Notes: a model not told the origin generated them from the letters alone. A stretch of DNA of 64,000 nt from an uncultured Planctomycetales bacterium (GCA_964583975.1 CAZOXU010000010.1:9779-73778), one strand, 5' to 3'; counted from the stretch's first letter, positions 2,171-30,289 are shown. Translations and numbers: made by a program.

Positions 2171-2184
2171 AACAATTATGGCAT

Positions 2185-2718: not shown

Positions 2719-2719
2719 T

Positions 2720-3988
2720 ATGGAAAAAATCGTTTCGAGAAATTTTGATCGACCTAATTCGTACCGTTTAGAAACCTATGTGGCTAATCAAGGTTATGAA
2801 GCGGCGCGTAAGGCTTTACAAATGACGCCAGCCGCCGTCATTGAAGAGATCAAAAAATCTAATCTTCGGGGGTTAGGTGGAGCTGGCTTCCCAACTGGGA
2901 CCAAGTGGGGTTTTATTAATCCTGCCATCCCTAAGCCAAAGTATCTGGTTGTTAATGGCGATGAAGGTGAGCCAGGAACGTTTAAAGATAAATATATTCT
3001 TGAGTTAGATCCGCATGCCTTTTTAGAAGGCGTTCTCATCACTTGTTATGCGATAGGTTCTCACAAAGCCTATGTTTATATTCGCGGCGAATATGTTATT
3101 CCAATTCAGCGTTTAAGAGATGCTATTGAAGAAGCTCGCCAAAAGAACTTTTTAGGCAAAGGCATTATGGGAACCGGTTTTGATTTAGAAGTGGTAGTTC
3201 ACCAAGGGGCAGGAGCTTATATTTGTGGGGAAGAAACAGCACTCTTGGAATCTTTAGAAGGCAAAAAAGGATTCCCTCGTCTGAAACCACCATTTCCAGC
3301 TGTTATTGGGTTGTTTGGATGCCCTACGGTTATCAATAACGTTGAAACCTTGGCTTGCGTGCCGCCGATTTTACAAAAAGGCAGCGAGTGGTTTGCAAAA
3401 TTAGGCTCAGAGAAAAACGGAGGCAACCGATTGTTCTGTGTCAGCGGACATGTCAATAAACCAGGCGTATACGAGCTTCCCAATGGAACGACCTTACGTG
3501 AAATCATTTATGAACATGCTGGTGGCATTCGTGGTGGACGAAAACTCAAAGCAGTTATTCCAGGAGGAATCTCAGCGCCTATTCTCACCCCAGATCAGTT
3601 AGATGTAAAAATGGATTTTGATTCGCTCAAAGCGATTGGTTCGATGGCGGGCTCCGGGGGAATTATTGTTATGGATGACACTACTTGTATGGTCAGGGCT
3701 GCTTTAATTGCTGCTCGCTTTTTTGCTCATGAATCCTGCGGCCAGTGTTCGCCTTGCCGAGAAGGCTCGGGCTGGGTATATCGTAATGTGAAAAGAATTT
3801 ATCATGGTGAAGGCCAACCGCATGATTTAAAAAATTTACCAGGCATTGTGAATAATATCGGAGGCAACACGATTTGTGCTTTCGGTGATGCTGTAACGAT
3901 GTCAGTCGGTAGCTATGTGTCTAAGTTCCGTAAAGAATTTGAAGATCACGTGAATTCCAAGAAATGTGAGCATGTATGCCAAAATTAA
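2720..3988 (+). CDS. nuoF: NADH-quinone oxidoreductase subunit F (51 kDa; FMN, NADH, 4Fe-4S)
   Basis: 422 aa with the GLGGAGFPTG FMN/NADH motifs and a C-terminal CxxCxxC cluster (ESCGQCSPCREG). Confidence 0.92.
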   Translation: MEKIVSRNFDRPNSYRLETYVANQGYEAARKALQMTPAAVIEEIKKSNLRGLGGAGFPTGTKWGFINPAIPKPKYLVVNGDEGEPGTFKDKYILELDPHAFLEGVLITCYAIGSHKAYVYIRGEYVIPIQRLRDAIEEARQKNFLGKGIMGTGFDLEVVVHQGAGAYICGEETALLESLEGKKGFPRLKPPFPAVIGLFGCPTVINNVETLACVPPILQKGSEWFAKLGSEKNGGNRLFCVSGHVNKPGVYELPNGTTLREIIYEHAGGIRGGRKLKAVIPGGISAPILTPDQLDVKMDFDSLKAIGSMAGSGGIIVMDDTTCMVRAALIAARFFAHESCGQCSPCREGSGWVYRNVKRIYHGEGQPHDLKNLPGIVNNIGGNTICAFGDAVTMSVGSYVSKFRKEFEDHVNSKKCEHVCQN

Positions 3989-5532
3989 CCATTGATGGAC
4001 GAGAGATTGAAGTTGCAGCAGGCACAACAATTATTCAAGCGGCGGATAAGCTAGGAATCACCATCCCTCGCTATTGTTACCACGAAGCCTTACCTGTCTC
4101 AGGAAATTGTCGCATTTGCATGGTCGAGGTAGAAAAACAACCCAAATTACAGATCGCTTGTTATACACCTGTGGCTGATGGTATGGTCGTTAAAACTACT
4201 TCACCCAAGGTCTTAGAAGTACGCAAATCTGTTTTAGAATTTTTGCTGGTGAATCATCCGTTAGATTGCCCTGTTTGCGACCAGGCTGGCGAATGCAAAT
4301 TACAAGATTATTACATGGATCACGGTCAGTATGACAGTCGTCTTGATGATGTTAAGGTGAAGAAAGAAAAGAAGGCGGTCTCGATAGGACCGACTGTGAT
4401 GCTTGACCAAGAACGCTGCATTTTATGTACACGTTGTGTTCGTTTCACCGATCATATTAGTAAGACCCATGAACTCGGTGTATTTGAACGCGGCGATCAT
4501 TCGCAGCTTGATGTGTATCCAGGCAAACAACTAGATAACAATTATTCAGGAAACGTCGTTGATATTTGCCCAGTCGGAGCGCTGACCGATAAAGACTTCC
4601 GTTTTAAATGTCGTGTGTGGTATTTAGAGAAGACCAAGTCGGTTTGTCCAGGCTGCAGCAATGGATGCAACATTACTGTTGAATGGGATAAATCACGACC
4701 TCATCAAGATAAAAAAGAACGTGTCATGCGTTTAAAACCAAGGTTAAACGGCGAAGTTAATAATTGTTGGATTTGCGATGAAGGTCGCTACAACTATCGT
4801 TTTATCGACGAAAATAGAATTACAACTCCTCAAATTAAAGATGATTTAGTTAGATGGGATGCAGCTTTAGAGACCGTGGCTTCAGCCATTACGGCAGCCG
4901 GGAGTAAAGTCGGTGTAATAGCTAATGCTCAATTGACCAATGAAGATCTTTTTGTGATTCGTAAATTATTCAAAGATGCCTCAGTTGGTTTTAAGGTTCC
5001 CCAAGCTTTAGGTAAGAGCGATGATTTCTTATTGAAAGCTGATCGCAATCCCAATACGGCTGGTGCGCAAAGTATTCTAGGTGACAGCGATGCCCAGGCC
5101 ATTATCAAAAAAGCCCAAGAAGGGCAGCTAGATGTTTTATATGTCTTTGGTCATGATTTGGTCAAGCTTTTTGGTAAAAGTACGGTTGAGACAATCGCTC
5201 GCAAAGTCAAATTATTCGTTTATCAAGGTAGCAATGTTAATGACACAGCTTCTTACGCGCATGTGATTTTGCCAAGCGCCGTTTATGCCGAGAAAGATGG
5301 GACCTTTACAAATTTCCAAGGCCGGGTGCAAAGAATTCGACCAGCTTTCTTACCCAAAGCCGAAGCTAAGGGTGATTGGGAAATCCTAAAACTACTAAGC
5401 CAAAAATTAGGCAAGGCCCTCGAATACAACAATTCTCAAGAAGTGTTTAAGGATGTAGCCACTGCTATAGCTGCATTTTCCGAAATGTCGTATGAAAAAA
5501 TTGGCGATCAAGGAATGTTGTTTAAAAAATAA
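3976..5532 (+). CDS. nuoG: NADH-quinone oxidoreductase subunit G, short form (518 aa)
   Basis: N-terminal 2Fe-2S and 4Fe-4S binding motifs are present (CYHEALPVSGNCRIC, CPVCDQAGECKLQ, CILCTRCVRF). The protein is much shorter than the roughly 800-900 aa canonical NuoG, so most of the molybdopterin-like C-terminal domain is absent. Confidence 0.8.
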   Translation: MPKLTIDGREIEVAAGTTIIQAADKLGITIPRYCYHEALPVSGNCRICMVEVEKQPKLQIACYTPVADGMVVKTTSPKVLEVRKSVLEFLLVNHPLDCPVCDQAGECKLQDYYMDHGQYDSRLDDVKVKKEKKAVSIGPTVMLDQERCILCTRCVRFTDHISKTHELGVFERGDHSQLDVYPGKQLDNNYSGNVVDICPVGALTDKDFRFKCRVWYLEKTKSVCPGCSNGCNITVEWDKSRPHQDKKERVMRLKPRLNGEVNNCWICDEGRYNYRFIDENRITTPQIKDDLVRWDAALETVASAITAAGSKVGVIANAQLTNEDLFVIRKLFKDASVGFKVPQALGKSDDFLLKADRNPNTAGAQSILGDSDAQAIIKKAQEGQLDVLYVFGHDLVKLFGKSTVETIARKVKLFVYQGSNVNDTASYAHVILPSAVYAEKDGTFTNFQGRVQRIRPAFLPKAEAKGDWEILKLLSQKLGKALEYNNSQEVFKDVATAIAAFSEMSYEKIGDQGMLFKK

Positions 5533-5534
5533 AT

Positions 5535-6620
5535 ATGCTAACCGATATCCTTATTAAATTTGCATTAGCCAGCGGCACGATATTCATCATGTTTAATATC
5601 GCAGGCCTCTTGACGTGGGTTGAACGCAAGCAATCTGCGGTCATGCAAGATCGTATTGGAGCGAACCGTGCTTCAATTTTTGGTTTTAAGGCGTTAGGAT
5701 TATTTCATGCGATTGCCGATGTGTTAAAGATGCTCAGCAAAGAAGAGTTCATACCAGCGGGGGCCAATAAATTTTTATTTAATATTGCTCCGTATCTATC
5801 AGTGGTTTTTGCCTTGGTTGGTTTTGCAGCTATTCCAATTGGCAACCAGTTGATTGTAGGAGATAGAATCATTGAACTTCAAGCTGCTAATATCAATGTC
5901 GCCTTACTTTTTGTTTTTGCCATGATGTCGATGGGTGTTTATGGGGTGGTGCTTGCTGGATTTTCTTCGAATAACAATTATGCGTTTTTAGGTGGTATGC
6001 GTGGCGCAGCTCAGATGATCGCCTATGAAATCACCATGGGGGCAGCCATCATGGGGGTCATCATGGTCTACAATACCCTTGATCTTCAAGCATTGGTACG
6101 GGCCCAAGGAGATTATTTATTAGGTGGCTGGCTTCCTAAATGGGGTATTTTTGTCCAGCCTTTAGCGTTTTTATTATTCTTTACAGCAGCCACAGCGGAA
6201 ACCAAACGTACACCTTTCGATCTTCCTGAGGGAGAATCAGAAATTATTGGATATTTCGTTGAATACAGTGGCATGAAATTTGGCATGTTCTTTTTAGCTG
6301 ACTTAATTGAGACGGTGTTGGTGGCAGCTTTAATGACAACATTATTTTTAGGCGGTTGGCAAGTGCCTTATTTGATGCCTGATGGATTTCATTTCCCATG
6401 GGGTGGACATATGGCGATGGGTAATCTGGCTGTCACGCTCCTTGGAGTTGGCGCCTTCTTTGCCAAGGTCAGCATATTTATTTGGGTGCTGATGGCTGTT
6501 CGCTGGACCTTACCTCGATTTCGTTATGATCAATTGATGCGTCTAGGCTGGCAGATATTGCTTCCGGCTTCACTTTTTAACATCGCAATCACAGCTGTTG
6601 TGATTACTTTACTTAGGTAA
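5535..6620 (+). CDS. nuoH: NADH-quinone oxidoreductase subunit H
   Basis: 361 aa polytopic membrane protein with NuoH/ND1-like conserved stretches (GYFVEYSG, RYDQLMRLGW). Confidence 0.9.
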   Translation: MLTDILIKFALASGTIFIMFNIAGLLTWVERKQSAVMQDRIGANRASIFGFKALGLFHAIADVLKMLSKEEFIPAGANKFLFNIAPYLSVVFALVGFAAIPIGNQLIVGDRIIELQAANINVALLFVFAMMSMGVYGVVLAGFSSNNNYAFLGGMRGAAQMIAYEITMGAAIMGVIMVYNTLDLQALVRAQGDYLLGGWLPKWGIFVQPLAFLLFFTAATAETKRTPFDLPEGESEIIGYFVEYSGMKFGMFFLADLIETVLVAALMTTLFLGGWQVPYLMPDGFHFPWGGHMAMGNLAVTLLGVGAFFAKVSIFIWVLMAVRWTLPRFRYDQLMRLGWQILLPASLFNIAITAVVITLLR

Positions 6621-6623
6621 ATT

Positions 6624-7226
6624 ATGGAAAACCCCAACGAAAAGCGTCGTGCCGAGCTAGAAAAATATTTTGATGCGAAAAGTCCTTTTGCACTTTTACG
6701 TGTCGCTCAAATGAAGCGTGCCTGGAAGCAGAAAGACCGCCGAGAACTGACCTGGTGGGAAAATACCTATATCCCCATGCTTTTAAGCGGATTGTATTTA
6801 ACCTCTAAGCATTTCTTTCATAATTTAAAGCTGCATATCTTGCATGTGTTTGGTCTGTACAAAGATGTTCCAGCTGCTGTGACCTATCAATATCCCGAGC
6901 AAAAAAGACCATTGGCCCCACGCACACGCACACGTCATCGTTTGATGAAGCGAGAAGATGGTTCGCCTCGCTGTGTGGCTTGCATGATGTGTGAGACGGT
7001 TTGTCCGGCCCGCTGCATTGAAATTACTGCGGCCGAGCATCCTGATCCTAATATCGAAAAATATCCTGCTGAATTCATATTGGATTTAGGAAAGTGTGTG
7101 TACTGTGGTTTTTGTGTTGAAGTCTGCCCCGAAGATGCCATCCGCATGGACACTGGCAAGCTCGATACCGCCGAATACTCCCGCGAAAGCATGATCTACA
7201 ATAAAAAACGTTTGATGAACGACTAG
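6624..7226 (+). CDS. nuoI: NADH-quinone oxidoreductase subunit I (2x 4Fe-4S ferredoxin)
   Basis: Two CxxCxxCxxxCP motifs (CVACMMCETVCP, CVYCGFCVEVCP). It has a roughly 30-40 aa N-terminal extension relative to a typical NuoI, so the true start may be an internal Met. Confidence 0.85.
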   Translation: MENPNEKRRAELEKYFDAKSPFALLRVAQMKRAWKQKDRRELTWWENTYIPMLLSGLYLTSKHFFHNLKLHILHVFGLYKDVPAAVTYQYPEQKRPLAPRTRTRHRLMKREDGSPRCVACMMCETVCPARCIEITAAEHPDPNIEKYPAEFILDLGKCVYCGFCVEVCPEDAIRMDTGKLDTAEYSRESMIYNKKRLMND

Positions 7227-7346: not shown

Positions 7347-7922
7347 GTGTCTAAGAAAATCCAATTAGCAAATGTAGTACCGGTTGAAATTATCCAGAAT
7401 AAGATTTATTTAATTCGGGGAATGAAAGTAATGTTTGATAAAGATTTGGCAGAATTGTATGGGGTACTCACGAAGAATTTGAATAAAGCAGTTAATCGAA
7501 ATATTGAACGCTTCCCAGAAGATTTTATGTTCCAATTAACGAAAGAAGAAATGGATTCTTTAAGGTTCCAAATTGGAACCTTAAAGAGAGGACAGCATAT
7601 TAAATATATGCCGCATGTTTTTACTGAACAAGGAGTTGCCATGCTTTCAAGCGTGCTCAATTCTCAAAGAGCTATTTATGTCAACATTCAAATCATGAGG
7701 ACGTTTACAAAACTAAGAGAAATGATGGCTTCGCATAAAGATTTAGCCCGTAAGATTGAAGAGATGGAAAAGAAATACGACCATCAGTTTAAAGTCGTTT
7801 TTGATGCTATTAAACAGATCTTGCAGGTGAAGGAAGAAGAAAACAAAAATCGTGGACCTATAGGTTTTCAGCCACCACCCAAGTCAGCTGTCAAGCAATC
7901 GAACCGAGCTGCGAAGGGGTGA
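7347..7922 (+). CDS. ORF6N/KilA-N-like DNA-binding domain protein (phage antirepressor-like)
   Basis: 191 aa whose N-terminal sequence resembles the ORF6N family, followed by a coiled-coil tail. GTG start with an AAAGGAG RBS. It overlaps the 3' end of sixA convergently. Confidence 0.6.
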   Translation: MSKKIQLANVVPVEIIQNKIYLIRGMKVMFDKDLAELYGVLTKNLNKAVNRNIERFPEDFMFQLTKEEMDSLRFQIGTLKRGQHIKYMPHVFTEQGVAMLSSVLNSQRAIYVNIQIMRTFTKLREMMASHKDLARKIEEMEKKYDHQFKVVFDAIKQILQVKEEENKNRGPIGFQPPPKSAVKQSNRAAKG

Positions 7923-8406
7923 GGAGCCATTGCAAGTTGGCAGAGTCTGTCTCGGCGCGTCCTCGAATAGTTAAATGAGCTAGTCCACCTTTTTTGAGAG
8001 TCAAAGGGAGGCTCGTTTCACCTATCAGCAAAAAAGAGATCAATTCACTTAAATGTGGCTCGTGTCCTACTAAAAGGATGTTAGAACCCTTGCGGGCATG
8101 CTTATTGATTTGGGTACAAAGATCCTCAAAGGCTGCACCAGGAATGAGATTATCTGATAGCAAGATCTGCGCAGGAGCATTCTCGAAGGTTTTAGCCACA
8201 ATGGCAGCAGTCTGCTTGGCACGAACAAAGGGGCTGGTCAGGATTAGATCAAAAGACAGCTTCAAAGCACTCATGCCAAGGGCATTTTGCCGCATTTTTT
8301 CACTACCTTCTCTAGTAAGGGGACGTTTGCTGTCATCTTTAAACCCTTTTGTGCCTCGTTCGACCGCAATAGCATGTCTTAAGATGTAAAGATTCATAAG
8401 AAGCAT
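7891..8406 (-). CDS. sixA: phosphohistidine phosphatase SixA
   Basis: RHG phosphatase motif (LRHA..E..T...RPLTREG...HEP); about 165 aa after trimming to the MNLYILRHA start. Confidence 0.8.
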   Translation of the reverse strand: MLLMNLYILRHAIAVERGTKGFKDDSKRPLTREGSEKMRQNALGMSALKLSFDLILTSPFVRAKQTAAIVAKTFENAPAQILLSDNLIPGAAFEDLCTQINKHARKGSNILLVGHEPHLSELISFLLIGETSLPLTLKKGGLAHLTIRGRAETDSANLQWLLTPSQLGSIA

Positions 8407-8427: not shown

Positions 8428-8486
8428 GGGCAATCCCCCGTGGTTGCCCAATGATAAAAGGGCAGGCACAGGGGCCTGCCCCTACG
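8428..8486. repeat. REP-like element, family A, two-hairpin module, copy 1
   Basis: GGGCAA-TCCCCCGTGG-TTGCCC, then a spacer, then GGGCAGGC-ACAGGG-GCCTGCCC-CTACG. The second hairpin recurs at 16764-16790 and both recur at 23808-23864. Confidence 0.8.
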
Positions 8487-8496
8487 AGGAGCCTGT

Positions 8497-8543
8497 CAAG
8501 GCTTCAGAGCGTTTTTGAGAAAACGGTATCTATTGACGACAAA
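8497..8543 (+). promoter_or_regulatory. conserved roughly 47 nt element upstream of secreted paralog 1
   Basis: CAAGGCTTCAGAGCGTTTTTGAGAAAACGGTATCTATTGACGACAAA is about 80% identical to 13011-13058 upstream of paralog 3. It contains a TTGACG/TTGTCG -35-like hexamer and a CGTTTT..AAAACG palindrome. Confidence 0.5.
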
Positions 8544-8657: not shown

Positions 8658-10883
8658 ATGAAATATAAAAATCTTACAAGAATTTTAATACTGTCCTTTG
8701 GGATGTTCTTTTTGTCTTCCAATATTTATGCTGCAGTGAATAACATGTCAGTGGTGCCGTTATTCGAAACTAAACGACCCGTCAAAACATGTAATCAAAA
8801 AGTAGTTTTCGCTAATACCTATCCGGAAGGAGTTACGCCAAGCGCACTATATTATCTGTTGGCTTGGAAAAATCCTGCCGTACCAATGCCAGCAGCCTGT
8901 TTAAGAGCCCCTGATCTTTTTGATAATTGGGGAACGGGTGCGATGTGTAAAGATAGGTTTATGGTGCTTGGAAACTCATTGCCGGAAAAATATTTAGTCC
9001 AAGCTAATCTTATGTCAGGATTTCCTAGTTTTTATTTAATGGCCATAGCTTTTACTAATCAAGATGTGTCATATTCAGTACCTCTTGCTATAGATACCAA
9101 TACAGATCCTGCAGCATGTACTTCTGGAGCGCCAATTCAATACTTGGTTCCTGGTAATGGTCTTCCAGCTTCACTTAATTTGGGCTTACAGGGAGCCCCA
9201 TCAAATCGTTATTACACTAGAAAGGTCGTCGGACGTGTTGTCCCATTGGAAGATTATATTATAGGGGGAACATTGAGCGATGGCTCTGTTGTTCCATCTG
9301 AAGTCGAGTTAAGTGTTGTTGCTTTCCATCCCGCTGGAATTGCCTACGTTGATTTTATTAATATATCAAGGGATCATCCAGCGGAAGCTGGATACAGAAG
9401 AGTTTATACAAAAACGATCGATTCTCATGGTATTGAGGCCTATGTTGTCAAAGCGAGATCTGCAGATCTTCTTGCTGGAGGCAACGATATAAAGATTGTT
9501 ATAGTGCCTAATGTTGGAGAAAAGTTGGTTATAGGTAATGATCTAACACCTGCTACAGCCGAAGACGGTACGGCAAAAATAACTATTTTTAATAATAAGC
9601 CAAATTCCTTGGGAGTTCAACCATTGCCTAGAACTAAAATTGCTATTCTTCCAGGGGGCGGTTATTCCTATGTATTTGATCTATCAACCCTTAACGCACC
9701 TGTTTGCGGAAGTGTATCTCGTCCTTGTAATAATATGGGGAGCGCTATAGAAGCAGCCAGAAGAGCAGCTTATATTTCTGGATTCGGGAACGATCTAAAA
9801 GGTGCTTATCTATATTATGTTGGACCAGGAACGGATACTTTTGGAGCTGTCCAAAACTACGGTAATCATACAGATGCCAGCTATCCTTTAATTATTCAAG
9901 GATTTGGAAATAAAAAGACAGTATTTGATAGAACCGCTTTAAATCCTAATGTTAATGCTTCTTTCTGGGGACAAATGGAACACGTCATCATTAAAAACGT
10001 GACTCTTAAACATCCTGGATTAGGAGAAGGACCTACTCCTGGTCTGCCAATCATACAGAGCGCCGGTATGCAATCTATAAGAAGATTGACCTTAGTCGAT
10101 GTTTATGCCAAGGGTCGAGGTATAAATCCTCCTGACTGTAATAGAATTGGCTATAGCCCAGCAGCTAGCGAAGTTGGTTTTGGCGCTGGAGGAATCGTAG
10201 AATTCAATGCCATTCGCTATTATAAAGAAAGTAACAGAGAAAATAGTTCAAGGACAAATTCTCTCTGGGCTTTTATATCCAATCATTCAGGAATAGCATT
10301 TAATGACAAGGGTATTTTCAATAGTGGAGTGTCTAATATTACAGGTGGAGAAGGAATAATTACATACTGTACTAATGATATGCCGCATCCAGACCAGAAT
10401 TATAATACACTAGGCAACCATGTTACTTCAGGTTTTTATGGGCTTGAAACAGCGTCCGGATCAACTCGCGCCCAAGGGCTTTTTATACCTTCACCTACGC
10501 ATGATGCACGAGGAGGTTATTTTCAAAATGGTCATTATAGTTCTCCAGGTAATAACGCTTTAATGCTTGGGAGTATATTTGATGTGGACTTTGTAGATAG
10601 TGAGTTTTTGGGTACCAATGGTAATCCATTAGAAAGCGGTAAAAGGTTTCAATCTACGGATAGCAGTGCGGCGAATGCTGCACACTATGATCCAACGTAT
10701 GCTTCTAATCCAAATAAAGGAGTAAGATTTTGGAATTCTTTAGAACCCCTTGCTGGTTCTACACAACTAGCTCCATTCCCATATTCTCAAGGAGCTACTC
10801 AAGTAAACGTCCCTTCACTTTATAATAACGCTGAACACACCTATACATCTGCCATCTATGTTGATTATACGGATAACCCATAG
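8658..10883 (+). CDS. secreted protein, paralog 1 of a three-member family with a predicted pectin-lyase-fold / parallel beta-helix
   Basis: 741 aa with an N-terminal signal peptide (ILILSFGMFFLSSNIYA). It shares domain order and motifs with the next two genes: VPL..(CN)QK, VPGNGL, SNRxY..K(V/P)(V/L)(G/A)R(V/W), a CG...PC..M.(S/G)AI-type N-cap, NNK. AAAGGA RBS. Confidence 0.7.
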   Translation: MKYKNLTRILILSFGMFFLSSNIYAAVNNMSVVPLFETKRPVKTCNQKVVFANTYPEGVTPSALYYLLAWKNPAVPMPAACLRAPDLFDNWGTGAMCKDRFMVLGNSLPEKYLVQANLMSGFPSFYLMAIAFTNQDVSYSVPLAIDTNTDPAACTSGAPIQYLVPGNGLPASLNLGLQGAPSNRYYTRKVVGRVVPLEDYIIGGTLSDGSVVPSEVELSVVAFHPAGIAYVDFINISRDHPAEAGYRRVYTKTIDSHGIEAYVVKARSADLLAGGNDIKIVIVPNVGEKLVIGNDLTPATAEDGTAKITIFNNKPNSLGVQPLPRTKIAILPGGGYSYVFDLSTLNAPVCGSVSRPCNNMGSAIEAARRAAYISGFGNDLKGAYLYYVGPGTDTFGAVQNYGNHTDASYPLIIQGFGNKKTVFDRTALNPNVNASFWGQMEHVIIKNVTLKHPGLGEGPTPGLPIIQSAGMQSIRRLTLVDVYAKGRGINPPDCNRIGYSPAASEVGFGAGGIVEFNAIRYYKESNRENSSRTNSLWAFISNHSGIAFNDKGIFNSGVSNITGGEGIITYCTNDMPHPDQNYNTLGNHVTSGFYGLETASGSTRAQGLFIPSPTHDARGGYFQNGHYSSPGNNALMLGSIFDVDFVDSEFLGTNGNPLESGKRFQSTDSSAANAAHYDPTYASNPNKGVRFWNSLEPLAGSTQLAPFPYSQGATQVNVPSLYNNAEHTYTSAIYVDYTDNP

Positions 10884-10911
10884 AGGTTTTAAGATTTTAA
10901 GGAGCATAAAA

Positions 10912-12972
10912 ATGCAAAACAGCAAATTAGTCAAATATTCTTATATAACTATAGCTGCAATTTGCTTGTCATTGTTATTTGCTAGCCCAAGCTTTGCGGT
11001 GGATCGAAATGATTTAGAGTTGTTGCCACTTGTGGATTCTAATAATATTGAAGCCTGTGGGCAAAAAATTAATAGTGTGATTGACTATAAAGTTGAAAAC
11101 TTAGAGGTGAGCAAGACTTTTTTATTTGCAGCTATAGATGATGGTACTATGCCTCAGATATGTAAGGACAATCCGTCAGGAAGTTCTCCAACGGGAGTTC
11201 CATGTGTTTATCGATTTCCTTATCAAGCTGAATTAGGTGATTCGCATATGCTTAGATTTTTAGCCCAAAATCAACCGAATGTCTATCTTTTTGTAGCTGG
11301 TTTAATCAATGCAAGTGAGGACAGAGTTTATTCTAAAGTGAAATCTTATAGATTTACGCCTTGTACACATACAACTCCAATGGTTAATATAGTTCCAGGA
11401 AATGGTTCGTTCACTGAAGATACCGTAGCCCCTCGTGGAAACGCATCGAATCGTTTATATAGTGTGAAACCACTTGCTAGATGGATTTCTTCAAATTATG
11501 GAATTTTTGGTGATGCTGAAAGCTCGAGCGAATTTGTTGTCAGTGTCGCAACTCGTGCCGATAACATTGAAAAAGTGGTGTTTGAAGTAAGAGATGTTAA
11601 TGATCATATCGGGCACGTAAATGTGCTAGCTTCACAAAAACGCATTGACCTAGAGGCAGGAGTTGAAGCTTATGTTGCAAAAATAAACAAAAATGCTTTC
11701 GATGCTGGAAAATTAACCATAAGAGCTTTTGTTATTCCAACCGTTGGGCTGCCTCTTAGCATGAGCGGTCCCTTGACTAGCCCGACACAAAGAAGTACGG
11801 ATGAACATGAAATATCTGTTTATAACAATAAGGATTCTAGCATTGTCAGGAAACATTTTTATATTGAAACCACTGGAGCAGACGTGGCAGGGTGTGGAAC
11901 TTTGGCGTTTCCTTGCGCAACGATGAATGGTGCAATTGATAAAGCTATGAATGCTGGAGTGACTGATTTTTCAGGTGCAACCTTGCATTTTGGTGAAGGA
12001 ACCTTTGCCTATGGTTGTACAGATCGGCGCTATCCAGGTCCACATACGGATAAGGCCACTATGATTTTTGAAGGGAAAATGACATCCAATGGTAAGAAAT
12101 TAACAACGATTAATCGAGGACTTGATTTGTCTCCGTGGGGTTGGAATGGTCAACAAATCACCGCGGTAACAAAAGCCGTATTTAAGAATTTTCTTATACG
12201 AAAAGATCCAACTAGTTCAAATCCTAGGGCAGCTATTATAGGAATAGGGGATAATTATGGTGTAGACACATCATTTTTAGTGGAGAATATTGATTTTAAA
12301 GGCTTGGGCAGAAATCCTGGAACATGCTTAACTGAAAATCTTCCATTTTCAGCAATATATGCAGAAATTCGAGATTCTTATATGGCTGGTTTCCAAGGAA
12401 ATGGAGCAGGGGAAAAAAATATTAGAAATTTTGTTTCCTGTTCTAGTATTGCATATTCTAATTCTGCAACAATTTTAAATTCTGCAGCGAAGGTGGATCA
12501 AACGGTTGGAGGTTGTACTATTCCTGGAAGCAGTCCACATGGCGATCTTATGAAATCATATAACGGGCATTTATATGTGAATGGATTCTGGTCTACACTA
12601 GAATCCTTAATTGTCTCTCAAGGACTATTTATTCAAGATTCTGATGTTGATATTAATAATGTTCATGTGACAGTGGGTGGGCCTAATGAACCTTCAATAG
12701 CAGCTGCTTTTTTATTTGGAAAACCAGATGGAGCTCCTGTTACAAATGTTACTTTTAGAAATAGCACTTTTGACAATGGGCCACGAAGAAATACCAGACT
12801 CGAAGCAGGGTTAGGAGCCTATCCTGGGACATCTGTAATAAGATTTATAAATACTCCTGGGGATAGCAACACGCCTTTTCTAGTGCCGGATAATGCGCAT
12901 ACTTGGGCCAATACATCATCAAATCCTTATTATTCCTCAGCGAGCGGTTTGGAATACTCTAGAGAGCAATAG
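10912..12972 (+). CDS. secreted protein, paralog 2 (parallel beta-helix-like)
   Basis: Start trimmed to the ATG at 10912, preceded by an AAGGAG RBS. Signal peptide present. Closest paralog is the third gene (HVGHVNVLASQKRID, KKDPTS(S/P)NPR, GLGR(N/D)PGTCL(T/S)E). Confidence 0.75.
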   Translation: MQNSKLVKYSYITIAAICLSLLFASPSFAVDRNDLELLPLVDSNNIEACGQKINSVIDYKVENLEVSKTFLFAAIDDGTMPQICKDNPSGSSPTGVPCVYRFPYQAELGDSHMLRFLAQNQPNVYLFVAGLINASEDRVYSKVKSYRFTPCTHTTPMVNIVPGNGSFTEDTVAPRGNASNRLYSVKPLARWISSNYGIFGDAESSSEFVVSVATRADNIEKVVFEVRDVNDHIGHVNVLASQKRIDLEAGVEAYVAKINKNAFDAGKLTIRAFVIPTVGLPLSMSGPLTSPTQRSTDEHEISVYNNKDSSIVRKHFYIETTGADVAGCGTLAFPCATMNGAIDKAMNAGVTDFSGATLHFGEGTFAYGCTDRRYPGPHTDKATMIFEGKMTSNGKKLTTINRGLDLSPWGWNGQQITAVTKAVFKNFLIRKDPTSSNPRAAIIGIGDNYGVDTSFLVENIDFKGLGRNPGTCLTENLPFSAIYAEIRDSYMAGFQGNGAGEKNIRNFVSCSSIAYSNSATILNSAAKVDQTVGGCTIPGSSPHGDLMKSYNGHLYVNGFWSTLESLIVSQGLFIQDSDVDINNVHVTVGGPNEPSIAAAFLFGKPDGAPVTNVTFRNSTFDNGPRRNTRLEAGLGAYPGTSVIRFINTPGDSNTPFLVPDNAHTWANTSSNPYYSSASGLEYSREQ

Positions 12973-13010
12973 GTAAAATTTTATGATGCATGTCAAGGCT
13001 TTGGGAGTAT

Positions 13011-13058
13011 TCTTAAGAAAACGGTTTCCATTGTCGACAAATATGTAAAGATTTGATT
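13011..13058 (+). promoter_or_regulatory. conserved roughly 47 nt element upstream of secreted paralog 3
   Basis: CAAGGCTTTGGGAGTATTCTTAAGAAAACGGTTTCCATTGTCGACAAA. See 8497-8543. Confidence 0.5.
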
Positions 13059-13181
13059 AAAATTCGGCCTCAAATTTGACTTTGACAACCAGGCATGTTA
13101 TGGTTGCCATAAGAGCAGTTAAAAGGCATACATACGATAATATTATAAGGAAGGTAAACTAAATTTTTGGGGGAGATTAAA

Positions 13182-15218
13182 ATGCTAATAAAGAACCTAA
13201 TCAGAAGCTCTTACATGACAATAGCTGCGTTTTGTTTGTCTTTGTCATTGACCAGCTTAAGTTATGCGGATTTAGAACTTGTTCCTTTGTTAGATTCAGA
13301 ACATATTAAAGCATGCAATCAAAAAGCAACCTTCATTGTTCATAATAATACTGAAAATGAAACGCCCGGCCTAACGGTTTTATTTATGGCCTTTGCTGGA
13401 ACTGTTTCAGAACAATGTTTAGCTAATCCTTACGCAGGAAACTGTGTAAATTCATATCCGTACAGGCTAGTGTTAAACAATAGTGGTTTATACACAATCC
13501 CAGCTGCACATCTCCCTAATTTAGTACTATGGGTTGGGCAAGTATTAACTAGCACCGCAAATCCAACACCACATGTGGCAGTTTCAAAAACTGTAAACTT
13601 TAATTTTGAAGCATGCCCATATGATCCAACAACAATTACTAAGGTAATCCCAGGCAATGGATTATCAACAGAAAATGTCACGCTTCCTCGTGGAAGTGGC
13701 CGATTGGCTAATAAACGGGTCGTAGCCAGATGGCTTTCCAAAATGAACCAAATCTTTGGCGACTCAGTATCTCGTGATAAATTTACAATTTCTGTAGGCA
13801 CACGAAAATCGGATGTATCAAAGGTTGTCGTAGAAGTTAGTGATTCTACAGGGCATGTTGGTCATTTAGACATTCTGGCTTCTCAAAAACGTATTGATCC
13901 AGATACAGGAATTTGGGCCTATGTAACAGAAATAGATAAGAATGATTGGGCTGCTGGCGATATAACCATAAAAGCAAAGGTTATTCCTACCAATGGCATA
14001 CCTTTTGTCATGGCTGGTTCTTTTGCTGCAGCAAGTAATACACAAAGATTAGACAATGAATTTGAATTGAAGATAGTTAACAATAAAAACAATGCTATCC
14101 CAAGATTAACTCACTTTGTAAATGCCAATGGTTCTGATACTCCAACATGCGGAACTACTCAAACTAATGCTTGCGCTAGTATGGATGGAGCTATCAAAAG
14201 CTTCCATAATCTTTATCCCAACAGTAAGTACGATGGTTGGAAAATTAAATTTGGTCCAGGAAATAACTTTGTATGGGGGTCAAATTATACCTACCTAGGT
14301 CCTCAAACAGAAAAAGTAGGATTTTTAGTCGAAGGGACCTTGTCTGATCTTGGTGAAAAACAGACAGTCTTTACCAGAGCAGTTGATTTAACCTCTGCGG
14401 GATATCCAGGCAATATATTGCTCACATCAATGGTAGAGGTGAAGGATGTAAAGTTTAAGAAAGACCCAACCTCTCCTAATCCGCGATCTTCCATTGTTGG
14501 TCCGTCTTGGGGTGGGTATCTTGGTTTAGAAAATGTGGAATGGATTGGTTTAGGGCGAGATCCAGGCACATGTTTATCTGAAGGATTTAGTACCACCGGC
14601 CTTATCGATGCAAGAAGACTAATGCTTAAAAATTCTTTAACTAATGGACAGTTCTTTAGTGTTGTTCAAAGTGCTGTTCTTGCTAACTCAAGCATTAGTT
14701 TTATTGACTTTTCATGGCTTGCTGGTGCAACTAGCCAGGTCAATCATGATGTCATTAATTGCCCTCCCAATGGAAATCCCCATGGTGATAAAGTAAAGCT
14801 TCAAGGCGGACATGGAGCTATATGGGGCTATAAGGATGGGAAAACCTTCGTCAATCATGCCCAAGGCTTATTTTTACAGGGCAATGATATATTGGTAGAA
14901 GACTCCTACGTTAGAATGGGTGATCCTGGTCAGCCTGCTATAGGAGGTAATCTATTTTTAGCAAATTATTCTGGAGGCTTCTTAGATAATATTCTTATGG
15001 ATAATGTTAAGACTGATGCTGGATGGACCAGATATGGTTGGATGGAAGGTGGTTATGGGCCGTTACCAACCAATAATGTTATAAAGTGTAATAACTGTAC
15101 TTTGTCTACTTATCCTAACGAGCCAGGAGGCACGTTACCTTCACAATCTGTATCGATAGGTGCGTGGAACTATGTATCACCCTATACGGGTGTTGAATAT
15201 TCAACAAGCAGTAATTAA
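13182..15218 (+). CDS. secreted protein, paralog 3 (parallel beta-helix-like)
   Basis: Start trimmed to the ATG at 13182 (GGGGAG RBS). Signal peptide present. Conserved blocks shared with paralog 2 throughout. Confidence 0.75.
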   Translation: MLIKNLIRSSYMTIAAFCLSLSLTSLSYADLELVPLLDSEHIKACNQKATFIVHNNTENETPGLTVLFMAFAGTVSEQCLANPYAGNCVNSYPYRLVLNNSGLYTIPAAHLPNLVLWVGQVLTSTANPTPHVAVSKTVNFNFEACPYDPTTITKVIPGNGLSTENVTLPRGSGRLANKRVVARWLSKMNQIFGDSVSRDKFTISVGTRKSDVSKVVVEVSDSTGHVGHLDILASQKRIDPDTGIWAYVTEIDKNDWAAGDITIKAKVIPTNGIPFVMAGSFAAASNTQRLDNEFELKIVNNKNNAIPRLTHFVNANGSDTPTCGTTQTNACASMDGAIKSFHNLYPNSKYDGWKIKFGPGNNFVWGSNYTYLGPQTEKVGFLVEGTLSDLGEKQTVFTRAVDLTSAGYPGNILLTSMVEVKDVKFKKDPTSPNPRSSIVGPSWGGYLGLENVEWIGLGRDPGTCLSEGFSTTGLIDARRLMLKNSLTNGQFFSVVQSAVLANSSISFIDFSWLAGATSQVNHDVINCPPNGNPHGDKVKLQGGHGAIWGYKDGKTFVNHAQGLFLQGNDILVEDSYVRMGDPGQPAIGGNLFLANYSGGFLDNILMDNVKTDAGWTRYGWMEGGYGPLPTNNVIKCNNCTLSTYPNEPGGTLPSQSVSIGAWNYVSPYTGVEYSTSSN

Positions 15219-15244: not shown

Positions 15245-15279
15245 AAGCCGGCCTTATTTAAGGTCGGCTTTTCTTTTTG
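15245..15279. terminator. bidirectional rho-independent terminator between convergent paralog 3 and nuoN
   Basis: AAGCCGGCC-ttatttaa-GGTCGGCTT flanked by an A-run upstream (AAAAAATAATT) and a T-run downstream (TTCTTTTTGT). Confidence 0.7.
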
Positions 15280-15292: not shown

Positions 15293-16741
15293 TTATCGAG
15301 TTAAATACATTCCTTTAACAGCAGCAATCGTAGCTTCGAAAAACGGTCCTTGGAAGATACCAATGACAACGATGCCTAGCATGGCCAAGCCCAGCAGCCA
15401 GCGCATGGGAACGGAGACCACAATAGGTGTATTGTGGCGAGGAGGTTCATCGACATAAAGACGTCGAGCGACCATCAAATAGTAGTAAAGTGAAATGACG
15501 ATATTAACAACAGCTACGATGGCCAACCACATATAGCCGCTTTGGACAGTTGCCATCAACAGTGTAAACTTACCAAAGAATCCAGCCAATGGTGGAACCC
15601 CAGCCAGAGAAACTAAAGCCAACAAAAGAGCAGCACCTAAAATCCCTGAACGTCGAGCCAGTCCAGTGTAATCTTGGATCTCATCCGACTTGGTTGCCAC
15701 AAAAAAGAGCACAATGACTAAGAAGGCGGCCATGTTGGTAAACAAGTATCCTAATAAATAATAATTCATGGCCGAGGCGCCTAGCACGCTTCCTGCAGCA
15801 GCCCCCATCAATAAATATCCAGCGTGAGAGATCGAAGAATAACCTAAAAGACGTTTGATATTCGTTTGGAACATGGCAACCAGATTACCATAGGTCATGG
15901 TGACAGCAGCCAGGGCAGCCAGCATCAAGCCCCATTCTTGATGCCAGGGAGCCAGAATACCAAAGAAGATGCGAATCAGGGCCACAAAGCCAGCTGCCTT
16001 AGAACCAACCGATAAAAGAGCAGTGACTGGGGTAGGTGCGCCTTGATAAACATCAGGAACCCACATGTGAAACGGTACAGCTGCAATCTTAAATCCAATA
16101 CCTGCGACCACGAGCACTAATCCAAAGAGCATCATAGGTCCCATTGAATGAATACTGACATATTGTAAAATCGCATCAAAGCGAGTTGAGCCAGTAACGC
16201 CATAAAGAAAACAGATACCATACAGTAAGAAGCCCGAAGATAAGGCTCCCAGGATTAAATATTTCATACCAGCTTCGATCGAGAGCTTATCACTTTTAAG
16301 ATAGGCTGTTGTGACATACAAAGAGATACTAAGAATTTCAATCGAGATAAACAGCATGAGAAAGTCTGCGGAAGAGGCAACCAGACACATACCAAGAAGG
16401 GCGAGCCACAATAAAAGGTAGAATTCTCCTCGACGGCTGCCTAACGATTTAAAGTATTCTTGGGTCATCCCAAAGACAAAGAGCATAGCCGTTAAGAAGA
16501 GCGCTTTAAAGAACCAGGCCAGTGAATCCATGACAAACATGCCGCTGAACGTAGAACCAACCAGCGATTGCTTTGTAAACCAGAAACACAGCAGGCCAAT
16601 GGTCGCAAGCACGCTTAAGATACCAAGCGTGTCACGGGTTTCATCCTTGGGTGTAAACATTTCAATAAGTGTCAAACCCACAAGGATGCAGGTAATCAGC
16701 GATTCTAAGGAAAATAAATTCCAATCAATGACGGGAAACAT
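15293..16741 (-). CDS. nuoN: NADH-quinone oxidoreductase subunit N
   Basis: 482 aa antiporter-like membrane subunit, last gene of the - strand J-K-L-M-N run. Confidence 0.88.
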   Translation of the reverse strand: MFPVIDWNLFSLESLITCILVGLTLIEMFTPKDETRDTLGILSVLATIGLLCFWFTKQSLVGSTFSGMFVMDSLAWFFKALFLTAMLFVFGMTQEYFKSLGSRRGEFYLLLWLALLGMCLVASSADFLMLFISIEILSISLYVTTAYLKSDKLSIEAGMKYLILGALSSGFLLYGICFLYGVTGSTRFDAILQYVSIHSMGPMMLFGLVLVVAGIGFKIAAVPFHMWVPDVYQGAPTPVTALLSVGSKAAGFVALIRIFFGILAPWHQEWGLMLAALAAVTMTYGNLVAMFQTNIKRLLGYSSISHAGYLLMGAAAGSVLGASAMNYYLLGYLFTNMAAFLVIVLFFVATKSDEIQDYTGLARRSGILGAALLLALVSLAGVPPLAGFFGKFTLLMATVQSGYMWLAIVAVVNIVISLYYYLMVARRLYVDEPPRHNTPIVVSVPMRWLLGLAMLGIVVIGIFQGPFFEATIAAVKGMYLTR

Positions 16742-16763
16742 ATTATTTAATCTTTCTTGTACA

Positions 16764-16790
16764 GGGCAGGCACAGAGGCCTGCCCCTACG
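16764..16790. repeat. REP-like element, family A, second hairpin only, copy 2 (nuoM-nuoN intergenic)
   Basis: GGGCAGGCACAGAGGCCTGCCCCTACG, 26/27 identical to copies 1 and 3. It fills most of the 52 nt gap inside the nuoJKLMN transcription unit. Confidence 0.8.
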
Positions 16791-16793
16791 TAA

Positions 16794-18272
16794 TTATTTC
16801 TGCAATATGACAGCTATGGGTTTGGTGCTTTTCTCGATATGTTTAATTAATGTCGATGGAAAACAACCAACCCAAATTAAGACAATCAATAATAAAATAT
16901 AAGGAAATCGACCTGCTAAGCCTTGAGCATCTACCAATTTATCCATTTTAGGCCCTAAAGGTCCCTGTAAGCCTAAGCGGATGATTTTAAGCATATAGAT
17001 AGCGCCAAGCACAATACCTAGAACAGCTAAGACGGTCAGCCAGCGATATTGATCCCAAGCGCCGAGCAACACCAACACTTCAGCAACGAAATTAGCAAAT
17101 CCTGGAACCCCTGCTGAAGCCAAGGCGACCATCATAAAGCAGGTAGAGATAAAAGGCATGCGTTTGGCAATACCGCCTAATTCATCCAAATTGCGCGTAC
17201 GTGTTTGATCTTCAATAAATCCTGTTAAGGCAAAGGCTAGGGTTGCCATAATCCCGTGGGCAAACATTAAGAACACCACCCCATTAAGGCCAATGACGTT
17301 ATAGCAAGCCAGACCTAATAGAATATAGCCCATGTGGCTGCAGCTCGAATACCCTAAGATATATTTGATATCGCGCTGGGTTAAGGCAATCAAACCACAG
17401 AAAAGAATGTTGACGATGGCTAAGGTGGCAATGATTGGCATCCAGGTATGGGCCGCATCAGGCATTAACTGGATGGCAAAACGGATAATGGCATAAGCGC
17501 CCATTTTCTTAAGTACACCGGCGTGTAACATGCTTACAGTTGTAGGTGCTTCAGCATATCCTACAGGGGCCCAGGTATGAAAGGGGAAAAGAGTCAGGGT
17601 GATGCCAAATCCAACCACAATAAATGGGAAGATCCAATTTTGCACAGCCACAGGTAAAGGGTGGCTCGCTAAATGCTGTTGGATGGCGATCAAATCAAAG
17701 GTGCCCAGACCAAGACTTAAATACAGGGCAATTAAACCAATCAAAGCAATCGAGGCACCAGCGGTTAAATATAAGGTAAGTTTCATCGCGGCATAATCAC
17801 GATGCTTCGATCCCCACATGACCATCATTAAGAATACAGGAATAGCAGCAATTTCATGAAAGAAGTAGAAAAAGAAAATGTCAACGGATAAAAAGGCGCC
17901 ATAGGTTCCAATCACGATTAAAAGCAACATGATGAAGTATTCTTTAACGCGATCTTTAATGGCTCCAGAAACCATTACAGAGGTAAATGAAGCGACACCT
18001 AAGAGGACTAGCAGCATGGAGTTAATGCCATCCACCCCTAAATGATAAGAAATTCCTAAAGGTTTGACCCAGGGGATTTTTTCAATGAATTGATAACCAC
18101 CAGCTAAGGGATCGTAGGCCCCAAAGACCAGGACCGATAAAGCAAAAGGCACGAAGGTCGCCCAAAAAGCGATCTTGCGAATTAAATCAGTTTTTGTAGG
18201 CTGGACAAAAAATAATATTCCCAGCCCCACCGTTGGAAGCAAAAGAATCCAAGAAAGAATGTTTGGTATCAT
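16794..18272 (-). CDS. nuoM: NADH-quinone oxidoreductase subunit M
   Basis: 492 aa with NuoM/ND4-like conserved segments. Confidence 0.9.
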   Translation of the reverse strand: MIPNILSWILLLPTVGLGILFFVQPTKTDLIRKIAFWATFVPFALSVLVFGAYDPLAGGYQFIEKIPWVKPLGISYHLGVDGINSMLLVLLGVASFTSVMVSGAIKDRVKEYFIMLLLIVIGTYGAFLSVDIFFFYFFHEIAAIPVFLMMVMWGSKHRDYAAMKLTLYLTAGASIALIGLIALYLSLGLGTFDLIAIQQHLASHPLPVAVQNWIFPFIVVGFGITLTLFPFHTWAPVGYAEAPTTVSMLHAGVLKKMGAYAIIRFAIQLMPDAAHTWMPIIATLAIVNILFCGLIALTQRDIKYILGYSSCSHMGYILLGLACYNVIGLNGVVFLMFAHGIMATLAFALTGFIEDQTRTRNLDELGGIAKRMPFISTCFMMVALASAGVPGFANFVAEVLVLLGAWDQYRWLTVLAVLGIVLGAIYMLKIIRLGLQGPLGPKMDKLVDAQGLAGRFPYILLLIVLIWVGCFPSTLIKHIEKSTKPIAVILQK

Positions 18273-18287
18273 AGAATTTTTATATTT

Positions 18288-18358
18288 GTCATTCTGAGGA
18301 GTGCAACGACGAAGAATCTTAAATCAATTATTAGATCCTTCGCTACGCTCAGGATGAC
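18288..18358. repeat. inverted pair of roughly 28 nt hairpin units in the nuoM-nuoL intergenic region
   Basis: Left unit GTCATTCTGAGGAGTGCAACGACGAAGAATC. Right unit, as reverse complement, GTCATCCTGAGCGTAGCGAAGGATC. Each unit has its own 5 bp stem (ATTCT/AGAAT versus ATCCT/AGGAT) with compensatory changes. Confidence 0.7.
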
Positions 18359-18367
18359 ACGTGTTGA

Positions 18368-20209
18368 CTACAAACTTTTAACCATCACATAAAACAAATA
18401 CACAGCACCTAAAATAAAAATCAAAGCATAAAACTGAACGAATCCAGTTTGTAATAAGCGAAGCACGCGGCCAGAGGCCTTGGCCATACTGGTCATGCCA
18501 TGTACACCTAAGCGTACAATGAAGATTTTTTCAAATCCCGCCAAAATGTAAGCAAAACCTTGTTGAATATAGTCCACATAAAAACCATAGACGATATCGA
18601 AATAATATTTGTTCGTTAAGACCGGATACAGAGGACCTAATTTTTTAGGTAAAGGATCACTTTCAGGTCTGCGTCCGTAAATGGTATAAGCGATGATCAG
18701 CCCAGCAACACCGATTACAGTAGAAACGCTGGCAACTGTCATATTTAAAGCTTCAGCAGGATGGTCTGGGAAAATCAAATGTGGAATACCAATGACCCCT
18801 CCAATCACCGAAAGAATCGCTAAATAAATTAAAGGCAAGGTCATGATGGCTGGCGATTCGTGAGTGTGGTCATGTTTCGATGGGGCGCCCCAGAATGCCG
18901 TGAAAAACAAACGACCCATATAAAAAGAAGTCAGACCTGAGGCAAAGCTAGCAACAATGTAAAGAAAGATATTATGTTCAAAAGCTAAGCCCAGCACTTC
19001 ATCCTTGCTCCAGAAGCCACTTAAAGGGAAGATACCACACAAAGCCAATGTTCCAATTAAAAAGGTGATACCAGTCACAGGCATGGTCTTAAGAAGCCCG
19101 CGCATCTTCCAAATATCTTGTTCATGATGCATAGCATAGATGACTGAGCCGGCGCCTAAGAACAACAGAGCTTTGAAAAAAGCATGTGTCGTTAAGTGAA
19201 ACATGCCTTGCATCGGTCCGCCAAGTCCTAAGGCCATGACCATCAAACCTAATTGGCTTAAAGTTGAGTAAGCCAGGATTCGTTTAATATCATTTTCAGC
19301 AATGGCCAAGGTGGCTGCCATTAAAGAAGTCAGAGCACCGATGTGGGCAATCACATTAAGCGCATCATGCAAAGGTTCAAAAATAAAGAAGGTACGGGCC
19401 AATAAATACACGCCAGCAGCCACCATGGTTGCTGCGTGGATCAATGCGCTAACCGGTGTGGGGCCTTCCATGGCATCAACCAACCATACGTGTAAAGGCA
19501 CTTGGGCTGATTTACCAATAACTCCGCAAAATAGTAAAAGGGCCACAACGCCTAGGATCTCATGAGGAATGCTGCCGGCAGCTACAGCCAAATCAGTTAA
19601 CTGAAAACTTCGTCCGTGACCAACATCCGAAAGGCTCCATAGAAGAAGAATACCGCATAAAAATCCAAAGTCAGCCAAACGATTGACCATGAAGGCTTTT
19701 ACCCCCGCATCAGCCGCGGAAGGTTTGTGATACCAAAAGCTGATTAATAGGTAGGAGCTTAAGCCCACTAATTCCCAAAAGATAAATAATTGAATGAGAT
19801 TATTCGATAGAACAATGCCGATCATTGAGAAAGCAAAGAGGCTTAAAAAAGCAAAGAAGCGAGGCATGCTGGGGTCCTCAGCCATATATCCTCGAGAGTA
19901 TATAAAGATCGCACTACCAACACCAGTGACAACTAAAAGCATCATGATGGCCAGCGGATTGACCAAATAACCAAAATTAATCGTCAGAGCGTCAAATTGT
20001 ATCCAGGGAATAGATTGCTGAGCTTCTAAGGCTGGGTGGCCTTGAAAAATTTGAATGGCAGTTAAGACCGTACAGATAAATGAAGTGACAATGCCAGCGA
20101 TGGCTGTTAGCGAGCTTAAATTTTTGGAACGCAGGAAAAACAGCGTAATGATAATACAGGCGACCAACGGCGCAAAATAAGCTGTCCAGACAAGTGCGGG
20201 GTTTACCAT
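18368..20209 (-). CDS. nuoL: NADH-quinone oxidoreductase subunit L
   Basis: 613 aa, NuoL/ND5-like with a C-terminal extension helix. Confidence 0.9.
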   Translation of the reverse strand: MVNPALVWTAYFAPLVACIIITLFFLRSKNLSSLTAIAGIVTSFICTVLTAIQIFQGHPALEAQQSIPWIQFDALTINFGYLVNPLAIMMLLVVTGVGSAIFIYSRGYMAEDPSMPRFFAFLSLFAFSMIGIVLSNNLIQLFIFWELVGLSSYLLISFWYHKPSAADAGVKAFMVNRLADFGFLCGILLLWSLSDVGHGRSFQLTDLAVAAGSIPHEILGVVALLLFCGVIGKSAQVPLHVWLVDAMEGPTPVSALIHAATMVAAGVYLLARTFFIFEPLHDALNVIAHIGALTSLMAATLAIAENDIKRILAYSTLSQLGLMVMALGLGGPMQGMFHLTTHAFFKALLFLGAGSVIYAMHHEQDIWKMRGLLKTMPVTGITFLIGTLALCGIFPLSGFWSKDEVLGLAFEHNIFLYIVASFASGLTSFYMGRLFFTAFWGAPSKHDHTHESPAIMTLPLIYLAILSVIGGVIGIPHLIFPDHPAEALNMTVASVSTVIGVAGLIIAYTIYGRRPESDPLPKKLGPLYPVLTNKYYFDIVYGFYVDYIQQGFAYILAGFEKIFIVRLGVHGMTSMAKASGRVLRLLQTGFVQFYALIFILGAVYLFYVMVKSL

Positions 20210-21140: not shown

Positions 21141-21147
21141 ACGCCCT

Positions 21148-29010: not shown

Positions 29011-29038
29011 GAAAACAACAATAAACAGGAGGAAGTCG

Positions 29039-30286: not shown

Positions 30287-30289
30287 TTA

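Follow-up and report, generated by a model that had tools for sequence, protein, structure and literature searches.

What are three large, consecutive genes for apparently exported proteins doing between the two halves of the genes for complex I, and what kind of protein do they encode? The question is raised by a stretch of 64,000 nucleotides (nt) from an uncultured Planctomycetales bacterium (GCA_964583975.1 CAZOXU010000010.1:9779-73778; hereafter the window, with positions counted from its first letter), in which the genes, here called P1, P2 and P3, occupy positions 8658–15218. A preliminary description took them for a tandem triplication of a secreted, parallel-β-helix-like protein family embedded in the nuo locus. 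Our answer, in which we place slightly more belief than doubt, is that P1–P3 are Sec-exported, glycan-active β-helix proteins, old paralogs carried on accessory DNA at the nuo junction. The trio is an undescribed family within a well-known fold: the family is new, the kind is known. Secreted β-helix paralogs are common and would not surprise a specialist; the main interest lies in an unannotated superfamily of at least 150 clusters, whose His-x-Asp site and recurrent slot in polysaccharide loci make it fit for curation and biochemistry, and in a conserved element upstream of the genes.

Three exported paralogs and their relatives

The three genes, with the G+C content at third codon positions (GC3) where given, are:

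8658–10883, + strand: P1, 741 amino acids (aa); AAAGGA upstream of the ATG; GC3 0.257; subfamily B, closest relatives P0006 and P0007
10858 or 10912–12972, + strand: P2, 704 or 686 aa; likely start ATG 10912, with AAGGAG 8 nt upstream; subfamily A
13167 or 13182–15218, + strand: P3, 683 or 678 aa; likely start ATG 13182, with GGGGGAG upstream; GC3 0.281; subfamily A

These consecutive + strand open reading frames (ORFs), of about 680–740 aa, lie exactly where the preliminary description had placed them, and the public-collection proteins P0001 (686 aa) and P0002 (678 aa) are identical to P2 and P3 as read from their likely starts. The signal peptide claimed for all three is borne out by eye and by hydropathy, as a basic n-region leads into a hydrophobic h-region and a small-x-Ala site for cleavage follows (IYA/AV in P1, SFA/VD in P2 and SYA/DL in P3). 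An N-terminus of the signal-peptide type also occurs in every close family member and in 90 of the 141 superfamily proteins with an initial Met. P1, P2 and P3 have seven invariant cysteines in common, as fits exported proteins. Judged by sequence, the three are genuine genes, each translated on its own, and their products are predicted to be exported by the Sec pathway. Their pairwise similarity is far beyond chance, BLASTP aligning P2 with P3 at 34% identity over 708 columns (E 6e-116), P1 with P2 at 26% (E 7e-23) and P1 with P3 at 24% (E 1e-13). With so few amino acids in common (24–35% identity), the paralogs have presumably reached saturation at synonymous sites. The motifs first said to unite them do so in part: PL.D/E...C(G/N)QK (with one extra residue in P1), (V/I)PGNG, NNK and CG(T/S)...(P/A)C..M..AI are present in all three, whereas ASQKRID, KDPTS.NPR and GLGR.PGTCL are limited to P2 and P3.

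That the family had not been described agrees with the zero matches of P1–P3 to Pfam, NCBIfam or PHROG. An exhaustive HMMER search of 1.84 billion representatives with a profile of the three paralogs returned 154 representative clusters at E<=1e-3. Beyond the queries, five of these are close relatives (E 1e-109 to 7e-35), all metagenomic in origin, P0004–P0007 being full-length or nearly so and P0008 a 301-aa fragment. Profile positions below about 130, which correspond to the N-terminal sandwich described below, are matched by these five and partly by P0009 and P0010, whereas matches of the other ~145 clusters begin at position 131 or later, mostly at about 150, and cover positions of about 150–630 (Ig-like domain and helix), with a core at 150–375 that is common to about 150 clusters. 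The profile matches place P1–P3 in a large, uncurated superfamily of predicted β-helix proteins, in which the N-terminal β-sandwich appears to be specific to the small close family. A word-indexed protein search, with P2 alone or with the eight-sequence alignment, gave back only the query, missing the paralogs too, and is uninformative. Scans with family patterns gave nothing in genome contigs, in viral contigs or, for the subfamily A alignment, in metagenome contigs, where the subfamily B alignment gave two short loci only; the eight-sequence alignment was too divergent to yield scan patterns.

A bit-score matrix and a neighbour-joining tree divide the close family into subfamily A (P2, P3, P0004, P0005 and P0008) and subfamily B (P1, P0006 and P0007). 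P1 scores 185–213 bits against P0006 and P0007 and 60–90 bits against P2 and P3, and P2 is roughly equidistant from P3 (348–357 bits), P0004 (322 bits) and P0005 (292–302 bits). Because P1 is nearer to P0006 and P0007 than to its own neighbours, and P2 is equidistant from P3, P0004 and P0005, the three genes are ancient paralogs of two subfamilies and not the product of a recent local burst; of the proposed triplication, the three paralogs stand and the recent tandem origin does not. Homologues with usable context are single-copy and lie in unrelated neighbourhoods: P0005 is found with TrmA, CinA and an M23 peptidase on a contig of 57% GC, where it is compositionally native, and P0151 is found with Cas3 (the two at L004, 142–6505) and an SDR protein and has a GC3 of 0.38, against 0.52–0.61 for its neighbours except Cas3 (0.39). 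The low GC3 of P0151 and Cas3 suggests mobility of the family in other lineages as well.

Predicted fold and a conserved polar row

An AlphaFold2 model of P2, built from a 58-sequence alignment, has a mean predicted local distance difference test score (pLDDT) of 85.5 and a predicted template modelling score (pTM) of 0.89, and supersedes an earlier run with eight sequences in which the C-terminal half had a pLDDT of 59. The parts of P2 in this model are:

residues 2–24: signal helix
10999–11376, + strand (residues 30–155): N-terminal β-sandwich, strands with pLDDT 91–96, bearing the PL.D...AC(G/N)QK motif
between the N-terminal sandwich and the Ig-like domain: extended linker bearing VPGNG
11476–11841, + strand (residues ~189–310): Ig-like (Big_7-like) β-sandwich
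11854–12861, + strand (residues ~315–650): right-handed parallel β-helix with the row R505, N523, H543-x-D545, Q570-G571
residues 338–347: capping helix, directly after the CG...PC motif (CGTLAFPC)
C-terminus: short disordered tail after the β-helix

The pectin-lyase fold proposed at the outset is recovered in this model, which has both a right-handed, three-sheet β-helix of many stacked coils and an N-terminal capping helix. In profile searches of the PDB, the N-cap alone matched, to that of BT_1002 (E 2.3e-7). Cysteines 49, 84, 98 and 151 of the P2 N-terminal sandwich are invariant among the three paralogs. Between P2 and P3, the Ig-like region is 47% identical and the remaining mature domains 25–36%, with the lowest values (25–27%) in the C-terminal half of the helix, and the Ig-like domain is the best-conserved part both between paralogs and across the superfamily; Big_7 is matched by 8 of the 58 relatives. 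An architecture of signal peptide, N-terminal sandwich, Ig-like domain and capped β-helix is predicted for P2 and, by homology, for P1 and P3.

One clue to what the proteins do is a row of polar residues, Arg, Asn, His-x-Asp and Gln-Gly, in the helix. An alignment of 58 sequences, which share about 20% identity, has H543 in every one, and D545, N553, G571 and W191 conserved at 90% or more. In a helix-only alignment the His, Asp, Gln and Gly show no substitution, and conservation is at least 90% for an Arg, an Asn and a Phe. The row appears to comprise the only universally conserved polar residues of the superfamily, and its spacing of about 20–30 residues fits successive helix coils. Such a pattern would point to an active or metal-binding site, less to a variable binding surface. 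Among five distant members whose contexts were inspected, three (P0013, P0026 and P0021; L090 7158–11613, L091 2335–6677 and L094 2043–7050) share one gene order: a NusG-like (UpxY-type) gene, the β-helix protein, a Wzx flippase, then glycosyltransferases and pyruvyl or methyl transferases, with Wzx directly after the β-helix gene in L090 and L091 and after one methyltransferase gene in L094; these genes stand at the head of polysaccharide loci rich in glycosyltransferases. P0015 adjoins a polysaccharide deacetylase, and the context of P0017 is uninformative. Other superfamily members bear PG_binding_1, Laminin_G_3, dockerin or CHB_HEX_C modules.

In the reading that we favour, P1–P3 would be depolymerases or polymer-modifying enzymes whose target, a polysaccharide or glycoconjugate, lies outside the cytoplasm. 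The His-x-Asp row would serve as catalytic or metal site, and the substrate would be positioned by the sandwich domains. Differences in specificity among the three paralogs would stem from the divergent C-terminal half of the helix, with which its low conservation between P2 and P3 is compatible. The target could be exopolysaccharide made by the cell itself, or glycans on the envelope of a partner or of prey. NuoH of this genome, which we assign to the Omnitrophota, is 81–89% identical to that of metagenome-assembled genomes (MAGs) labelled Candidatus Omnitrophota, which are uncultured, very small and suspected to depend or prey on other cells, and in which exported glycan-active proteins are candidate tools for cell–cell interaction. 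A further-reaching version, in which P1–P3 would be founding members of a His-dependent family of secreted glycan enzymes, the superfamily would be a standard yet overlooked part of NusG/Wzx loci and the trio's divergent copies would form a horizontally acquired, co-regulated repertoire to attack or remodel glycans on the envelopes of different partners or prey, is speculative and, taken as a whole, in our view improbable.

The predicted fold is shared with the pectin-lyase-fold glycan enzymes, including PL9 rhamnogalacturonan and pectate lyases (5olq, 1ru4), GH141 BT_1002 (5mqp), PL6 alginate lyases, GH28, GH87, GH110 and GH120. In the PDB profile searches, sequence matches of P1–P3 to the catalytic regions of these families were not found, and the prefix of N-terminal sandwich and Ig-like domain is the family's own. 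To our knowledge, the Arg, Asn, His-x-Asp and Gln-Gly row is not a catalytic signature of any of these families. Other β-helix enzymes belong to polysaccharide loci, such as Vibrio RbmB (9ozd) and the C5-epimerases AlgE4 and AlgG (2pyg, 8ja4), whereas P1–P3 themselves lie outside such a locus; compared by sequence alone, mannuronan C5-epimerases such as AlgE4 and AlgG have a catalytic DPHD/E motif on the helix, along with a conserved Tyr, and the P1–P3 family has P-H-(G/P)-D. The DUF1565-like assignment suggested earlier found no footing in Pfam, in which P1–P3 are without a match to DUF1565 (PF07602), Beta_helix or Pectate_lyase_3 even at E<=1. All close family members likewise lack a DUF1565 match at this threshold, and P0004–P0007 match none of the three models, whereas the distant homologues P0011 and P0012 score about 22 bits, against a cut-off of 20.3 bits, at the position of the helix N-cap, and one further superfamily member matches at E 0.003.

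The nuo junction and rival explanations

The genes on either side of the trio are:

4–354, + strand: cut ORF, presumed nuoB
351–7226, + strand: nuoC, D, E, F, G, H and I, upstream flank
7347–7922, + strand: ORF6N anti-repressor-type gene (Pfam 6e-36, PHROG 4e-32)
7891–8406, − strand: SixA-like histidine phosphatase gene, overlapping the ORF6N gene tail to tail
15293–21032, − strand: nuoN, M, L, K and J, downstream flank

The same convergent layout, with nuoB–I on the + strand and nuoN on the − strand, is found in six related Omnitrophota MAGs (L008, L009, L011, L012, L013 and L019), where nuoM–J follow nuoN wherever the contig extends. Their nuoI–nuoN junction, 1.7–2.9 kb long in five of the six, holds differing genes, including an Na+/H+ exchanger (in three), DUF1653, LexA, a Wzx flippase with GH1, an AAA_14/DUF4143 ATPase and DUF6941. 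Since the layout is shared, two convergent nuo operons, nuoB–I and nuoJ–N, are a feature of the clade; what lies between the operons varies from genome to genome, and the trio sits at this variable spot. Among the loci compared, it occupies the junction in this genome only, and the ORF6N and SixA-like genes have no match there either (>=35% identity over >=60 aa, related Omnitrophota loci). The earlier view of an unusual cargo embedded in the nuo locus has to be given up, as complex I is not interrupted: the trio lies between two operons and outside either.

The trio also stands apart in composition, with a GC3 of 0.25–0.28 against 0.29–0.47 for the other 36 genes measured, 35 of which are at 0.33 or above. 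Such a low GC3 suggests that the genes came from a more AT-rich source or, at the least, have a history of their own. Marks of an island boundary (flanking direct repeats, an integrase or a tRNA) were not found near the trio. The sole other GC3 outlier among 39 genes is a 192-aa gene at 28050–28628 of the window (GC3 0.285), with weak matches to P-loop kinase-like proteins.

Of the explanations that compete with a glycan-active role, the one that deserves most attention, possible but rather unlikely in our estimate, is that P1–P3 are non-catalytic surface or secreted adhesins, whose helix and sandwiches bind a ligand of host, prey or matrix, as would fit the epibiotic or predatory lifestyle proposed for Omnitrophota. 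Whole-chain Foldseek matches in the PDB are to proteins with FnIII/Ig domains in tandem, the biofilm scaffold RbmA among them, an acidic catalytic pair typical of β-helix glycosidases was not recognised, and long secreted Omnitrophota proteins are discussed as cell-wall-targeting effectors or carbohydrate-active enzymes (CAZymes). In addition, the LIC10774/LIC10365 family of surface proteins in NCBIfam has weak matches among the 58 relatives (6 of them, best E 1.6e-5), and an entry in the reference list of PMC11350617 describes LIC10774 as binding calcium and interacting with components of the host. However, when His-x-Asp and Gln-Gly stay invariant in more than 150 clusters that share about 20% identity, an active or metal site is the more typical cause, the slot of three distant members within polysaccharide biosynthesis loci is a fixed one, and, unlike anchored or autotransporter β-helix adhesins, P1–P3 have no anchoring module (translocator barrel, sortase signal, lipobox or type IX secretion tail) by Pfam, NCBIfam, the model or a lipobox check. 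An origin as a prophage remnant, or as a phage-derived tailspike or depolymerase cassette, could draw on the ORF6N neighbour, the atypical GC3 and the tailspike-like fold, and is nevertheless quite improbable: unlike the phage tailspike and capsule depolymerases 6c72, 5w6p and 7xy1, P1–P3 have Sec signal peptides, which are unexpected on virion proteins, and they lie in a non-phage context, with no capsid, terminase, tail or integrase gene nearby. No sequence similarity to phages was found either, as judged from PHROG (P1–P3 and the close homologues tested, P0005 and P0006), IMG/VR and tblastn of INPHARED phages and plasmids, and BFVD matches are generic FnIII/Ig tandems (template modelling score <=0.29); families of phage tail or structural proteins had no match in the N-terminal region, although a particle-binding domain was not specifically sought.

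Functional coupling to complex I, for instance as periplasmic accessory or assembly factors, has only the position between the nuo halves to commend it and is very improbable, given that the six related MAGs keep the nuo layout with unrelated junction genes, that the paralog family is missing from the 10 kb on either side of nuoH in all 80 related loci, and that homologues elsewhere lie in unrelated contexts. Least credible of all, to the point of being negligible, is the notion of decaying or spurious ORFs. Homologues are indeed very rare, and the word-indexed search returned the query alone; against this stand three uninterrupted ORFs of about 2 kb in DNA of 40% GC, with Shine-Dalgarno sites, a confident fold prediction for P2 and the outcome of the search for homologues outside this genome, which yielded full-length proteins in at least five other metagenomic clusters, with the Cys, Gly and His conserved. 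Exported, glycan-active β-helix proteins on accessory DNA remain our preferred reading, and the points that weigh against it are several. P2 alone was modelled, and that the conserved residues line one groove is deduced from their spacing in the sequence. The close family departs from the wide family where the Asp of 'GSDAF' is replaced by Ile or Val. The link to polysaccharide loci comes from homologues at about 20% identity that are without the N-terminal module, and the close homologues with usable context (P0005 and P0151) lie outside glycan loci. Membership in a CAZy-type β-helix family (GH28, GH141, PL1, PL3, PL6, PL9 and others) was not found by sequence, the best helix-only match in the PDB being to 5olp (E 0.25), and the low GC3 of the trio could be explained without transfer.

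Expression signals and the wider neighbourhood

Four features bear on the expression of the trio:

8491–8543, + strand: conserved non-coding element of ~55 nt, copy 1, 115–167 nt upstream of the P1 start
12988–13041, + strand: the same element, copy 2, 16 nt after the P2 stop and 141–194 nt upstream of the P3 start
13034–13063, + strand: promoter-like site (TCGACA, 18 nt, TAAAAT; 10/12 match), overlapping the 3' end of element copy 2
15245–15270, no strand assigned: terminator-like hairpin, 11 pairs and then a T-run, in the gap between P3 and nuoN, which converge

P2 begins (ATG 10912) 28 nt after the P1 stop, for which reason P1 and P2 are probably co-transcribed, and the 209-nt gap between P2 and P3 contains promoter-like sites, P3 being taken as its own transcription unit. 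The trio would accordingly form two units, P1–P2 and P3, each behind one copy of the element. In a repeat search, 8491–8504 pairs with 12988–13001 (93% identical) and 8507–8543 with 13005–13041 (81%), so that the copies are 81–93% identical although the P1 and P3 proteins downstream share just 24% identity. A 25-nt core of the element occurs twice in the window, with zero occurrences expected from shuffles, and is absent from all other loci scanned. The presence of the element before both units suggests common regulation, and it may be a shared regulatory site at the DNA level, such as an operator or promoter, kept by selection or recently copied.

Readings of the element as RNA, either as a leader for the nearby GAF-ANTAR regulator or as a riboswitch, were rejected: against Rfam, copy 1 has far-sub-threshold matches only (E 0.02–0.31) and copy 2 none at E<=1, and folding z-scores of −1.1 and −0.3 give no RNA-fold signal. 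The substitutions between copies disrupt pairs of the candidate hairpins without compensation, which also speaks against RNA. Compared by eye, neither an integron attC site nor sigma-54 promoter spacing fits. Close by, at 8458–8483 of the window, in AT-rich intergenic DNA between the start of the SixA-like gene and P1, lies a GC-rich perfect hairpin of 10 pairs, which scores as a terminator on the − strand only, where no gene ends.

On the far side of the nuo genes, nuoJ has a GAF-ANTAR regulator as its neighbour, after which come amtB, a glutamine-synthetase-like gene and GOGAT (21112–22383, 28982–33028 and 38489–44466), a block that looks like nitrogen assimilation. The adjacency of GAF-ANTAR and amtB is kept in the related MAG L009 (19256–21080). 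In this genome only, the two are separated by an ORF for a RelE-like toxin (22499–22807) and by an ORF of 1606 aa (23154–27974), the latter having no Pfam or NCBIfam match, a 90% cluster that consists of itself alone and a window-typical GC3 of 0.39.

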